A stretch of 63,346 nucleotides of DNA, counting the filler, from Licmophora abbreviata (lineage: Eukaryota): assembly GCA_900291995.1 (NCBI GenBank). It is 28 parts of 28 records of this genome, joined end to end, with 100 filler letters (N's around TTAATTAATTAA, not from the genome) between each part and the next. Parts side by side here need not be neighbours in the genome. Positions count along the whole stretch, not along the records: positions 22,217 to 23,587 come from OLMU01002777.1; positions 23,688 to 25,432 come from OLMU01002778.1; 26 more parts are not named here. One strand, written 5' to 3'. How positions within the stretch are numbered: the stretch's first letter is position 1; every line of letters begins with the position of its first letter. Of this stretch, positions 21,702 to 25,111 are shown one piece after another. The translations under genes and the position numbers were made by a program. The notes under the pieces were generated by a model. The model did no database searches. It was not told where the DNA came from and saw nothing but the letters and a program-made list of their open reading frames with translations.

Positions 21702-23391
21702 TCACGTTGCGAACCCGTCGCGCAGCAGCTTCCAGGTGATCGCATCCAGCAGCGCCTCGAAACTGGCATCCACGATATTCGCACTGACCCCCACCGTGGA
21801 CCAGCGACGCCCCTGCCCGTCCTGACTGTCGATGATGACGCGGGTCACGGCCTCGGTCCCGCCTTGGGTGATGCGCACCTTGAAATCCACCAGCCGCATG
21901 TCGTCAATGGCCTCCTGATAGCGCCCCAGATCTTTGGCAAGCGCCTTGGCCAGAGCATTGACAGGGCCGCGATCATTGCCCTGCGCATCCATCGACTCGC
22001 TGACCGACAGCTTCTTTTCGCCATCCACCTTGACCACGACCACGGCCTCGGACAGCGACACCATCTGATCGTACTTGTTCTTGCGCCGTTCCACCGTCAC
22101 CTTGTAGCGCTTGACCNNNNNNNNNNNNNNNNNNNNNNNNNNNNNNNNNNNNNNNNNNNNTTAATTAATTAANNNNNNNNNNNNNNNNNNNNNNNNNNNN
22201 NNNNNNNNNNNNNNNNCACCGGGCCAGCAATTCGAAACTGGCCTGCGCACTGTCATAGGTATAGCCGCGCTCCTCCTGCAGCTTGATCTGCTCGAGGATA
22301 CGCGCCAGCGCCGGATCGCCCTTGTTGACGACAAGCCCCGCCTCCGACAGCCGCCGCCGCAGGTTCGATTGCCCCGCCTGGTTCGACATCGGAATGACCC
22401 GGGCATTGCCCACATCACCGGGATCGACATGCTCATAGGTGGTCGGATCCTTGAGGATGGCGCTCGCATGCAGCCCCGCCTTATGCGCAAAGGCCGAGGC
22501 GCCCACATAGGCGGCCTGCTTCATCGGCACCCGGTTGAGGATCTCGTCCAGCATCCGGCTGGCCTGCGTGATGCCGGTCAGCGCCTCGCGGCTGATCCCT
22601 GTCTCATAGCGGCTGGCATAGGGCTCCTTCAGCAAAAGCGTCGGAATCAGCGCCGTCAGATTGGCATTGCCGCAGCGCTCGCCCAAACCATTCAACGTCC
22701 CCTGCACCTGCCGCGCCCCCGCCTCGATCGCCGCAAGGCTGCCCGCCACGGCGTTTTCCGTATCGTTATGGGTATGGATGCCAAGCCGGTCGCCGGGAAT
22801 GCCCGCCGCGATCACCTCGGCGGTGATGCGGCCGATCTCGGCAGGCAGCGTGCCACCATTCGTGTCGCACAGCACGATCCATCGCGCCCCCGCCTCATGC
22901 GCCGCCTTCAGCGCCTCAAGCGCATAATCCCGGTTGGCTGTCCAGCCGTCGAAGAAATGCTCCGCATCGAACAGTGCCTCGCGCCCCTCGGCCACCACAT
23001 GCGCAATCGAGGCACCGATATTGTCGGTATTTTCGCTGAGCGAAATACCAAGCGCGGTCGTCACGTGAAAATCATGCGTCTTGCCCACCAGACAGACAGC
23101 ACCGGTCCCGGCATTGAGCACCGCCGCCAGCACCTCGTCATTCCCAGCCGAGCGCCCGGCCCGCTTGGTCATCCCGAACGCCGTCATCATGGCGCGGGTC
23201 TGCGGCGCCTCGTCGAAAAAGGCGCTGTCGGTGGGATTGGCCCCCGGCCAGCCGCCCTCGATGTAATCCACGCCAAGCGCATCCAGCCGCCGTGCGATCT
23301 GCACCTTTTCATGCATCGAGAAGGATACGCCCTGCGTCTGCTGCCCGTCGCGCAGCGTGGTGTCATAAATATAAAGACGCTCCCGGCTCAT
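21702..23391 (-). CDS. cimA: Citramalate synthase (gap inside)
   Basis: DTTLRDGQQ, EGGWPGANP, FDAEHFFDG, HTHND, GERCGNANL, FAHKAGLH; C-terminal regulatory domain GPVNAL...WSTVGVSANI. Confidence 0.9.
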
Positions 23392-23407
23392 GCCACGGCT
23401 CCCGTTT

Positions 23408-23458
23408 TCTTCTGGCCGAAAATATCCCGGGGAGTGTGAGGGGCTAGCCCCTCACTCC
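23408..23458. repeat. Small palindromic intergenic repeat, family A, copy 2 (between cysS and cimA)
   Basis: TCTTCTGGCCGAAAATATCCCGGGG then GTGAGGGGC-TA-GCCCCTCAC. Confidence 0.75.
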
Positions 23459-23491
23459 GCCTTTCGCCCCGGGTGCGCGCCTTGGCCCACA

Positions 23492-24948
23492 TCAGTCCAG
23501 CCCCTCGAGCCGGGCCGCATCGAACCCGGCACCGGGCACCAGCTCCACACCGTCCTTGCTCATCCGCACCTCGACCCCCGCCGCGACNNNNNNNNNNNNN
23601 NNNNNNNNNNNNNNNNNNNNNNNNNNNNNNNTTAATTAATTAANNNNNNNNNNNNNNNNNNNNNNNNNNNNNNNNNNNNNNNNNNNNAATCCTTGCTCTG
23701 CATGGCCGCTACCCGGGCTTGCACCAGTCGGGTTTCCAGCGCCGACAGATCCGCTACCGGGCGCGCCGCCCAGTCCGGAACACCGTCGGCCATCAAGCCC
23801 AGAAACCGCAGCGTTGCGCGCAAGGTGGACCGATCATCCGCCTGTGACAACCGATGCAGTTCGGTGATGGCCTTGGGCGTATTCAGATCATCGCTGACCG
23901 CCTCGACCACAGCCTCACACGGTGCTGCGCCGCCGTCGCCCTGCTCGGCCTGCCGGTACCATTTGCGCAACGTGGCTTGCGCCTCGCGGGCCTTTTCGGC
24001 GGTCCAGTCCATCGGCTTGCGGTAATGCGTGCTCAGAAAGACGAAGCGGATCACCTCGCCCGGCACGCCCTCCTCCAGCAGGTCATGCACGGTGAAGAAA
24101 TTGCCGAGGCTCTTGGACATCTTCTTGCCCTCGACCTGCAGCATCTCGTTATGCATCCAGATCCGTGCAAAGCCGCTTCCCGGATGGGCACAGCAGCTTT
24201 GCGCGATTTCATTCTCGTGATGCGGAAACATCAGATCATTGCCGCCACCATGGATGTCAAAGCTTTCGCCAAGCAACTCGTGGCTCATCGCCGAACACTC
24301 GATATGCCAACCCGGACGCCCCCGCCCCCAGGGACTGTCCCAACCGGGCAGATCCGCACTCGACGGCTTCCACAATACGAAATCCATCGGGTTGCGCTTA
24401 TACGGCGCCACCTCCACGCGGGACCCTGCGATCATGTCGTCCACGGACCGGCCGGACAAGCGGCCATAGTCGGAATAGCTGTCGACGGCGAAAAGCACAT
24501 GCCCTTCGGCCTCATAAGCATGGCCCTTGGCGATCAGATCCTCGATCATCGCGATCATCTGCGGGATATATTGCGTGGCCCGCGGCATCGCATCCGGCTC
24601 GAGCGCGCCAAGCGCGCCCATGTCGTCCAGAAACCACTGAGTGGTCTGCGCGGTGATCCGGGCGATCTCGGCATTCACATCACCGCCCTTGCCCACGGTC
24701 TCGATGGCGCGCGCGTTGATCTTGTCATCCACATCGGTGAAGTTGCGCACATAAGTCACGTGATCCGGGCCATACACATGGCGCAGCAACCGGTAGAGCA
24801 CGTCGAACACGATCACGGGCCGCGCATTGCCCAGATGGGCGCGGTCATAGACCGTGGGACCGCAGACATACATCCGCACGTTGTCGGGGTTCAAAGGCTC
24901 CAGCACCTGCTTGGCGCGGGCCTTGGTGTTATAGAGTCTGATCGTCAT
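23492..24948 (-). CDS. cysS: Cysteine--tRNA ligase (gap near C-terminus)
   Basis: [13 protein letters not shown] (HIGH), [18 protein letters not shown]-terminus [10 protein letters not shown]...LEGLD* at 23492-23587. Confidence 0.97.
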
Positions 24949-25032
24949 CGTGAATTCCTCGCGCGCGCTCCCGCGGCGGGCTTATCAACTTAACGTCCTG
25001 TAGGGAATAGATGACGGCCCGCCCGAGATATC

Positions 25033-25074
25033 TCAGGTGGTAATGCAGCAGATGATGGTGCAACGGATCGTCAT
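25033..25074 (-). CDS. Putative leader peptide MTIRCTIICCITT of the cysS-cimA operon
   Basis: 13 codons, of which 4 Thr, 4 Ile and 3 Cys; ends 84 nt upstream of the cysS ATG and is followed by an anti-SD/anti-AUG sequence. Confidence 0.7.
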   Translation of the reverse strand: MTIRCTIICCITT

Positions 25075-25082
25075 GGGGCTGG

Positions 25083-25111
25083 AAGCTACGCGCCCTCGCG
25101 CGGATTGGCAA
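25083..25111 (-). promoter_or_regulatory. Sigma70-type promoter for the cysS leader
   Basis: TTGCCA-N17-TAGCTT on the minus strand; the -10 element ends 8 nt before the leader ATG, suggesting a leaderless start. Confidence 0.55.

Follow-up and report, generated by a model that had tools for sequence, protein, structure and literature searches.

How might one leader serve an operon that encodes both an aminoacyl-tRNA synthetase and an unrelated biosynthetic enzyme? The question is raised by a cysS-cimA locus in a 63,346-nt stretch of DNA (the window, filler included) joined from 28 parts of assembly GCA_900291995.1, which is filed under Licmophora abbreviata. From the window and the cysS loci of its bacterial family we favor, with somewhat better than even confidence, a leaderless ribosome-mediated translational attenuator that opens on shortage of Cys or Ile and reaches cimA by polarity or coupling.

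The cysS-cimA operon

The operon lies on the minus strand of the window and contains the following features:

23492..24948 (-), cysS, cysteine--tRNA ligase (TIGR00435, 419.6 bits against a cut-off of 340), with an assembly gap inside at 23588-23687
21702..23391 (-), cimA, citramalate synthase, 100 nt past the cysS stop codon, with an assembly gap inside at 22117-22216
24957..24960 (-), cysS Shine-Dalgarno (SD) sequence GAGG(A), identified from the sequence

Both genes are split by an N/linker gap in the window. The N-terminal part of cimA matches TIGR00977 with 458.7 bits (cut-off 450) and the C-terminal part with 98.5 bits, and the nearest genome has the same cysS-cimA order and the same 100-nt spacer. 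Among 231 loci the gap between the two genes is ≤10 nt in 68, 11-40 nt in 5, 41-150 nt in 90, and >150 nt in 68. Since it exceeds 40 nt at most loci (158/231), the window included, translational control of cysS would reach cimA there only via polarity. The window spacer contains a hairpin-like element (23400-23480, minus strand; CCCCTCACACTCCCCGGGATATTTT...AGAAGAA), and similar text is found 5′ of cimA in L346 and L348. This element resembles a small mobile repeat of this bacterial family, which may account for the variable gap.

Several other arrangements were observed around cysS. At one locus (L255, genome G038) the cysS match lies inside a 1031-aa open frame, consistent with a CysS-CimA fusion, and is preceded by the candidate leader MCPRIRICVIR. 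In the window, a divergent MttB gene (trimethylamine methyltransferase, PF06253; 25212-27027, plus strand) is split by an assembly gap, and its apparent start lies ~100 nt from P1, the promoter-like site described below. Three genomes that are 95-100% complete (G092, G441, G503) have neither a CysS match (E≤1e-30) nor a CimA match (E≤1e-80), reflecting either an assembly gap at the operon or a replaced synthetase. At 60 loci of other alphaproteobacterial families (L166-L225), cimA is downstream of cysS in 34, and a C-terminus identified by a crude motif, presumably gltX-like, lies directly 5′ of cysS in 32, which suggests an older gltX-cysS-cimA operon.

A leader uORF with a predicted leaderless start

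Between the divergent genes are a promoter-like site and a short upstream ORF (uORF):

25083..25111 (-), P1, a sigma70-type promoter-like site, TTGCCA-17-TAGCTT, identified from the sequence, with a predicted +1 at the uORF AUG or 1-2 nt before it
25033..25074 (-), leader uORF MTIRCTIICCITT of 13 codons, with putative sensing codons, counted from the stop, Cys(-5), Cys(-4), and Ile(-3, AUU)

P1 is made up of TTGCCA (25111-25106), 17 nt, and TAGCTT (25088-25083), with 8 nt to the ORF. The uORF contains 7 Ile and Cys codons, including the tandem Cys codons UGC UGC, versus 4 in the runner-up among the 267 closed ATG ORFs of 10-18 codons in the window. In the family the -10 to ATG gap is 6-7 nt in 117/132 leaders and the TTG of the -35 is present in 114/132, while an SD-like motif is seen 5′ of the uORF at 10/136 loci versus 120/136 for cysS. 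The P1 geometry together with the absence of a uORF SD fits a leaderless mRNA, as the initial annotation had proposed, and from the promoter geometry we infer that this mRNA starts at the uORF AUG.

A generic promoter scan returned 0 sites; in most family promoters the -10 ends in a base other than T (T in 20/132). According to the available part of PMC8407463, a -10 without the final T is usual in Alphaproteobacteria. The R. sphaeroides TSS tables of that paper, in the part available, contain one cysS TSS of P1 type (TTGCCC-17-TACCTC). The RNA evidence comprises contigs from 19 runs; the four examined were from relatives and say nothing on transcription starts, since in two of them a single contig also runs into the divergent gene, and the supplements of the R. 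pomeroyi sRNA paper have no cysS entry.

The leader region has no Rfam match at E≤5, in keeping with the earlier description of the element as unannotated, but it is in print all the same: the window element very probably corresponds to uORFC-8-2, a candidate published by Brewer et al. (2021, RNA Biol 18:2417, PMC8632094). The accessible text describes 145 examples upstream of Rhodobacterales cysS, in which Cys codons occur in tandem, the first of two stems contains these codons, and a U run is modelled as an intrinsic terminator. Shared features are the position upstream of Rhodobacterales cysS, an AUG uORF, tandem UGC/UGU codons, a stem over the uORF end, a U-rich tract, and a possible three-way junction; both the UGC-dominant tandem Cys codons and the adjacent cysS were found here. 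The CC pair is placed at positions 14-15 in the publication versus 9-11 here, a difference that may stem from alignment-column numbering. Neither 'isoleucine' nor 'cimA' occurs in the main text of that paper, in the form available.

Ile and Cys codons in the family leaders

For the family comparison we collected the cysS loci of family genomes and dropped three without a usable start, duplicates, and those with <250 nt upstream, leaving 276 distinct loci. With leaders called without regard to composition, from TTG-16/18-TA, an ATG 5-8 nt on, and a length of 6-26 codons, we found one upstream of cysS in 209/276. A looser first pass gave 136/160 loci, with one removed and six rescued by Ile/Cys content. 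Roseovarius, Ruegeria, and Sulfitobacter are the named relatives with cysS loci.

Ile, Cys, and Thr make up 29.3%, 22.3%, and 14.5% of the residues in the 209 leaders, compared with 4.2%, 1.0%, and 4.9% in CysS. Counted from the stop, codon -3 is Ile in 194 leaders, codon -4 is Cys in 150 and Ile in 48, codon -5 is Cys in 141 and Ile in 40, and codon -7 is Ile in 141; codon -2 is Thr (87), Ile (48), or Pro (38), and codon -1 is Cys (93) or Arg (63). The CC pair is present in 137/209 leaders, with the first Cys at position 9 in 69, 10 in 39, and 14 in 1, and TGC is used for 324 of the leader Cys codons versus TGT for 33.

NCC/AUC predominates at codon -2 and NGC at codon -1; the two codons make up the 5′ arm of a hairpin described below, so that Thr at these positions is best taken as structural. 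Thr is absent from 21/188 cimA-linked leaders, Thr at -2 is encoded by ACC in 84/87 cases, and Thr content shows no difference with cimA linkage (p 0.17). The initial annotation had proposed that Thr, Ile, and Cys are all sensed; from the codon content, the residues sensed are most likely Ile and Cys, and Thr is unsupported.

One could suppose that there is no codon-level tRNA sensing and that selection acts on the peptide (Cys redox or metal sensing, or nascent-chain arrest) or on RNA structure alone. Codon -3 (window 25044-25042) is AUU in 119/131 leaders, though cysS uses AUC four times as often, a near-invariance at the nucleotide level. Additionally, control-codon mutations in similar Streptomyces leaders had little effect (cited in PMC1262725, of which part was available). 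However, Ile and Cys interchange at -4 to -6 across leaders, which fits hungry codons rather than an arrest motif, and Ile is lost where cimA is lost, so we regard selection on peptide or structure alone as highly improbable.

Ile codons and cimA linkage

Where cimA is downstream, 186/188 leaders have at least 2 Ile and all 188 have Cys; with no cimA, at least 2 Ile are found in 1/8 leaders (6 lineages), whereas Cys is kept in 8/8. The six leaders with ≥2.3 kb downstream and no cimA contain 1, 1, 0, 1, 0, and 3 Ile and 2, 3, 3, 3, 1, and 1 Cys, respectively, and cimA was not found in the genomes of these six (completeness 78-99% where given). In a second draw, 16/401 genomes had no cimA match (E≤1e-80). 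Nine of these 16 were additional to the genomes already covered, and six of the nine had a cysS match, comprising two leaders with 1 and 0 Ile, three leader-less loci, and one Ile-rich leader (L354). Along with L303 and L334, which also have Ile-rich leaders and no cimA match, L354 was left out as of unknown linkage because these contigs end in or at cysS; should the absence of cimA prove genuine, all three would make the association weaker.

Low Ile is thus seen in 5/6 cimA-less lineages, the exception (L253) keeping 3 Ile, and an underpowered sign test on 5 supported pairs gave a median p of 0.125. With few lineages, the Ile-cimA association is strong in effect and thin in independent events. 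Where cimA lies apart from cysS (L346-L348), it has no Ile-rich leader of its own. In other families, inspection by eye found Ile+Cys uORFs together with cimA at L171, L182, L184, and L197, and a Cys-only uORF at L167, whose genome has no cimA match. Shortened or altered Cys-type leaders were observed in the cimA-less lineages L084, L157, L129/L349, and L353. L084, L129, and L157 have no recognizable pair of the segments A and A′ introduced below, which suggests a different or decaying switch in their leaders.

Three covarying helices in the leader RNA

The RNA between the uORF and cysS contains the following segments on the minus strand:

25064..25074 (-), the leader start, where AUGACG (and UCCG) pairs with B and part of A as the 5′ side of helix P0 (free-leader MFE; partner swap)
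25032..25040 (-), segment 1, made up of the final codons and stop (CCACCUGAG), which is the 5′ side of the stop-codon hairpin (folding, covariation)
25017..25027 (-), segment 2, containing A (GGCGGGC, 25023-25017), which pairs with segment 1 or A′ (covariation)
25004..25016 (-), segment B, a pyrimidine-rich tract whose 5′ half pairs with the leader start and whose 3′ end overlaps the P2 -35 box (partner swap, profile)
24979..25007 (-), P2, an internal promoter-like motif, TTCCCT-17-TAAGCC, with TG before the -10 (column profile); its +1 would fall near 24972, immediately past A′
24972..24981 (-), segment 3, containing A′ (GCCCGCC, 24981-24975) (mutual information (MI), tree changes, pair probabilities)

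The initial annotation had described the uORF, the P1-like site, A, B, A′, and B′ (the cysS SD/start region, 24958-24943), and a sequence check found each of them in place. It did not include the stop-codon hairpin or the internal promoter-like motif, gave A′ no SD-sequestering role, and did not cite the 2021 paper. A′ is predicted to pair with A when the ribosome is stalled and otherwise with the SD region (24967-24957). Helix 1:2, the stop-codon hairpin, and helix 2:3, which is A:A′, share A and are therefore mutually exclusive; they overlap the ORF end, and both covary.

The outer A:A′ pair, which is GC in 53 and CG in 32 of 130 leaders, ranks at the top of 6788 inter-block pairs by corrected MI, outside the anchoring motifs. 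It switches 24 times on the CysS tree, with independent pairs of 5.8 vs 0.2 of 8 (median p 0.03). In 41 hand-picked sequences, 91.6% of A:A′ cells and 83.4% of stop-hairpin cells are paired, and 0/500 shuffles were as high. We also compared each leader's own partner with the partner of its tree neighbours for 191 of the 209 leaders. The own partner was better for 1:2 (149 vs 42), A:A′ (131 vs 60), and B with the leader start (142 vs 49), weakly so for A′:SD (112 vs 79; 77/130 in a smaller set), with controls at 91 vs 100 and 79 vs 112. The A:A′ pairing proposed earlier is thus upheld, as is the side remark that B may pair with the leader start.

Fixed-column tree tests were not significant for the stop hairpin (median p 0.125) or P0 (median p 1), and the register of P0 differs between leaders. 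The whole-leader MFE is not more stable than that of shuffles (z -0.56). In the window, the MFE contains a Cys-codon stem and the stop hairpin in a three-way junction; of these two, covariation was checked for the stop hairpin alone. Own-partner advantage was absent for segment 1:A′, and for segment 1:SD the own partner was better in just 49/130. Four leaders (L065, L105, L139, L142) have an extra 15-25 nt between the stop codon and A, which should alter the ribosome geometry.

These results bear on the view that Thr, Ile, and Cys are all sensed and that B pairs with the cysS SD and start as a pseudoknot or alternative helix. Window B is indeed complementary to the cysS start region (-13.8 kcal/mol), and Thr is more frequent among leader residues (14.5%) than in CysS (4.9%). 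But the own partner is no better for B:SD (95 vs 94) or B:cysS start (96 vs 94), blanking B has no effect in the folding described below, and the distribution of Thr argues against sensing, as noted above. The match of B to B′ in the window arises because leader and cysS both begin AUGACG. The A-B-A′-B′ pseudoknot therefore falls while the helix over the leader's own AUG stands, and we give almost no credence to joint Thr sensing with B:B′ pairing.

Modelled opening of the cysS SD

For each stall position we removed the ribosome-covered part and folded the rest; the values are equilibrium predictions, not kinetics. Averaged over 130 leaders, the model assigns SD opening a cost of 7.9 kcal/mol for the free RNA, ~7.0 for stalls at codons -8 to -6, 5.8-5.9 at -4 to -2, and 9.3 with A absent. 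The corresponding window values are 7.6, 7.8, 2.8-3.2, and 10.5 kcal/mol. The cost is minimal when the best-conserved codons, -3 and -4, are in the A site. The shift is as predicted by >0.5 in 97/130 leaders and opposite in 14/130, with a mean effect of ~2 kcal/mol.

Blanking A closes the SD again (5.5 to 8.5 in 71 leaders; 2.8 to 8.9 in the window). With A′ blanked instead, the cost in the window drops from 7.6 to 3.6, and opening does not change when B is blanked (71 leaders). On stalling, in 71 of 191 leaders sampled, the A:A′ probability rises from 0.18 to 0.63 and A′:SD-side pairing falls from 0.52 to 0.16. With a ribosome at the stop codon of the window leader, the SD is closed with a 12-nt footprint (8.2) but not with 6 or 9 nt (3.7, 3.3). 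A′ is thus predicted to cover the SD unless the ribosome stalls at codons -5 to -2.

Terminator search, Rho, and a second promoter-like motif

Brewer 2021 modelled the element as a Cys-only classical attenuator in which the second stem and U run form an intrinsic terminator, with the motif ending at that U run (PMC8632094, as far as available). In favor of this model, the stop hairpin does exist and a U/C-rich tract comes after it, and 63/191 leaders reach at least 5 U in 8 nt if counting may start 0-2 nt past the stem. However, 6/191 have such a run directly past the stem, the window tail after the stem reads CCGUCAUC, and no terminator-like site was called on the minus strand of the window. 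Since A′ follows ~35-45 nt downstream of the tract, an antiterminator role for the covarying A:A′ helix is excluded. Against a Cys-only input, Ile is more conserved than Cys and tracks cimA. We therefore consider the published terminator model quite improbable. The initial annotation's ribosome-stalling switch with no U-tailed terminator is, by contrast, supported by the sequences and the folding.

Alternatively, the same Cys/Ile sensing could have Rho-dependent termination in or just past the leader as its output, with the pyrimidine tract as the Rho loading site, exposed once the ribosome leaves and enclosed in the A:A′ loop on stalling. The loop is richer in C than G (1799 vs 1291), and a post-stop helix around a pyrimidine-rich loop recurs by eye with different sequence in L182, L167, and L171. 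Rho would also allow direct control of cimA despite the wide cysS-cimA gaps, and it has been put forward for mycobacterial cys leaders (in the available part of PMC1262725). However, the tract is short (A to A′ ~42-46 nt), its 5′ half covaries with the leader start, its 3′ half is accounted for by the P2 -35 box, and SD opening follows the stall position without Rho. We therefore view a Rho-based output as unlikely, and return to translational control of the SD.

The family column profile of P2 is TTTCC-17-TGnTAAGCC. Using a matrix built from leader-bearing loci, which favoured 17 nt, we found the motif to be significant in 18/24 leader-less family loci vs 2/60 loci of other families. The message from the predicted P2 start is less structured (4.9 kcal/mol). 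The R. sphaeroides tables (PMC8407463, in the part available) have no second cysS TSS ~90 nt downstream of the P1-type one, which counts against an active P2.

Proposed mechanism

In the attenuator that we favor, P1 would start the mRNA at the uORF AUG, as its geometry indicates. With charged tRNA-Cys and tRNA-Ile plentiful, the ribosome would complete the uORF and depart, upon which segment 1 would capture A in the stop hairpin, the leader start would pair with B in P0, probably hindering re-initiation, and A′ would fold over the cysS SD to keep cysS translation low. When either tRNA is short, a stall at codons -5 to -3 would cover segment 1, allowing A:A′ to form and the SD to open. cimA would presumably be reached via polarity or, at loci with overlapping genes, via translational coupling. 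From its start beyond A′, a P2 transcript could supply a constant floor of the essential synthetase. The complete scheme is an OR gate that couples Cys to CysS and Ile to CimA, with codons re-tuned on cimA loss, a three-helix relay, a self-locking start helix, and a nested promoter floor; taken as a whole, we judge it an even call.

Relation to known leaders

That this motif may sense Cys has been proposed before, in print, and the class of mechanism is known. As in other leader-peptide attenuators, a short ORF is enriched in amino acids tied to the downstream genes and overlaps exclusive helices; the terminator, U tract, and upstream antiterminator of the classical ones were not found here. 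thrL (Thr and Ile) and ilvL (Ile, Leu, and Val) are multivalent classical attenuators with 1:2 / 2:3 / 3:4 helix logic. Like them, this leader would read at least two control amino acids; unlike them, with products of one pathway and an intrinsic terminator, it combines unrelated amino acids and genes and places the last helix over the SD. To our knowledge, multivalent attenuators all read amino acids of one pathway. A direct link between the two inputs, in which cysteine would starve cells of Ile by inhibiting threonine deaminase, is speculation; our literature search found no paper on it.

The best mechanistic precedent is Ms5788A, a mycobacterial polycysteine leaderless sORF attenuator for which polarity was proposed on the basis of reporter data (Canestrari et al., bioRxiv 10.1101/834739, part available). 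The mechanism favored here would share with it a leaderless short ORF, a stall that relieves SD sequestration, and downstream polarity, in a comparison of mechanism rather than homology. In Ms5788A a single amino acid is read and the sequestering structure is blocked by the stalled ribosome itself; for the present leader, an additional relay (1:2 to 2:3 to SD) is predicted in between. The leaderless cysS leader peptide of Deinococcus deserti, in the available text of PMC4007540, belongs to another phylum, is described with Cys residues only, and is proposed to act by transcription attenuation. The LEU element of actinobacterial leuA (Seliverstov et al. 2005, PMC1262725, part available) also combines a leader peptide with alternative structures on the SD, a gene of the LeuA/CimA superfamily, and no terminator. 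In that element the SD is paired by the Leu codons themselves and a conserved pseudoknot is predicted, whereas in the present leader the SD pairs with neither segment 1 nor B.

Besides Brewer 2021, the literature covered, mostly without subscription papers, contained no cimA or cysS-cimA attenuator. The leader may also appear in the comparative surveys of Vitreschak 2004 and Lopatovskaya 2010. In the available text on uORFC-8-2 (PMC8632094), A:A′, A′:SD, the leaderless start, and P2 do not appear, and a third helix is termed rare and without covariation. Relative to the print found, the new elements are the proposed Ile input with its cimA co-variation, the predicted relay from 1:2 to 2:3 to 3:SD, the helix over the leader start codon, and the putative promoter nested in the leader.

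If true, this reading would revise the published terminator model and show that a uORF can be tuned to the mixed content of an operon, here one that joins a synthetase to a biosynthetic enzyme unrelated to it. Lineages that have repeatedly lost Ile codons along with cimA would offer a natural experiment on such tuning. In Roseobacter denitrificans grown on pyruvate, 80% of Ile flux runs via the citramalate route (PMC2749216, from the part available). The leader would therefore provide a regulatory mechanism for this route, the main Ile source measured in one Roseobacter.
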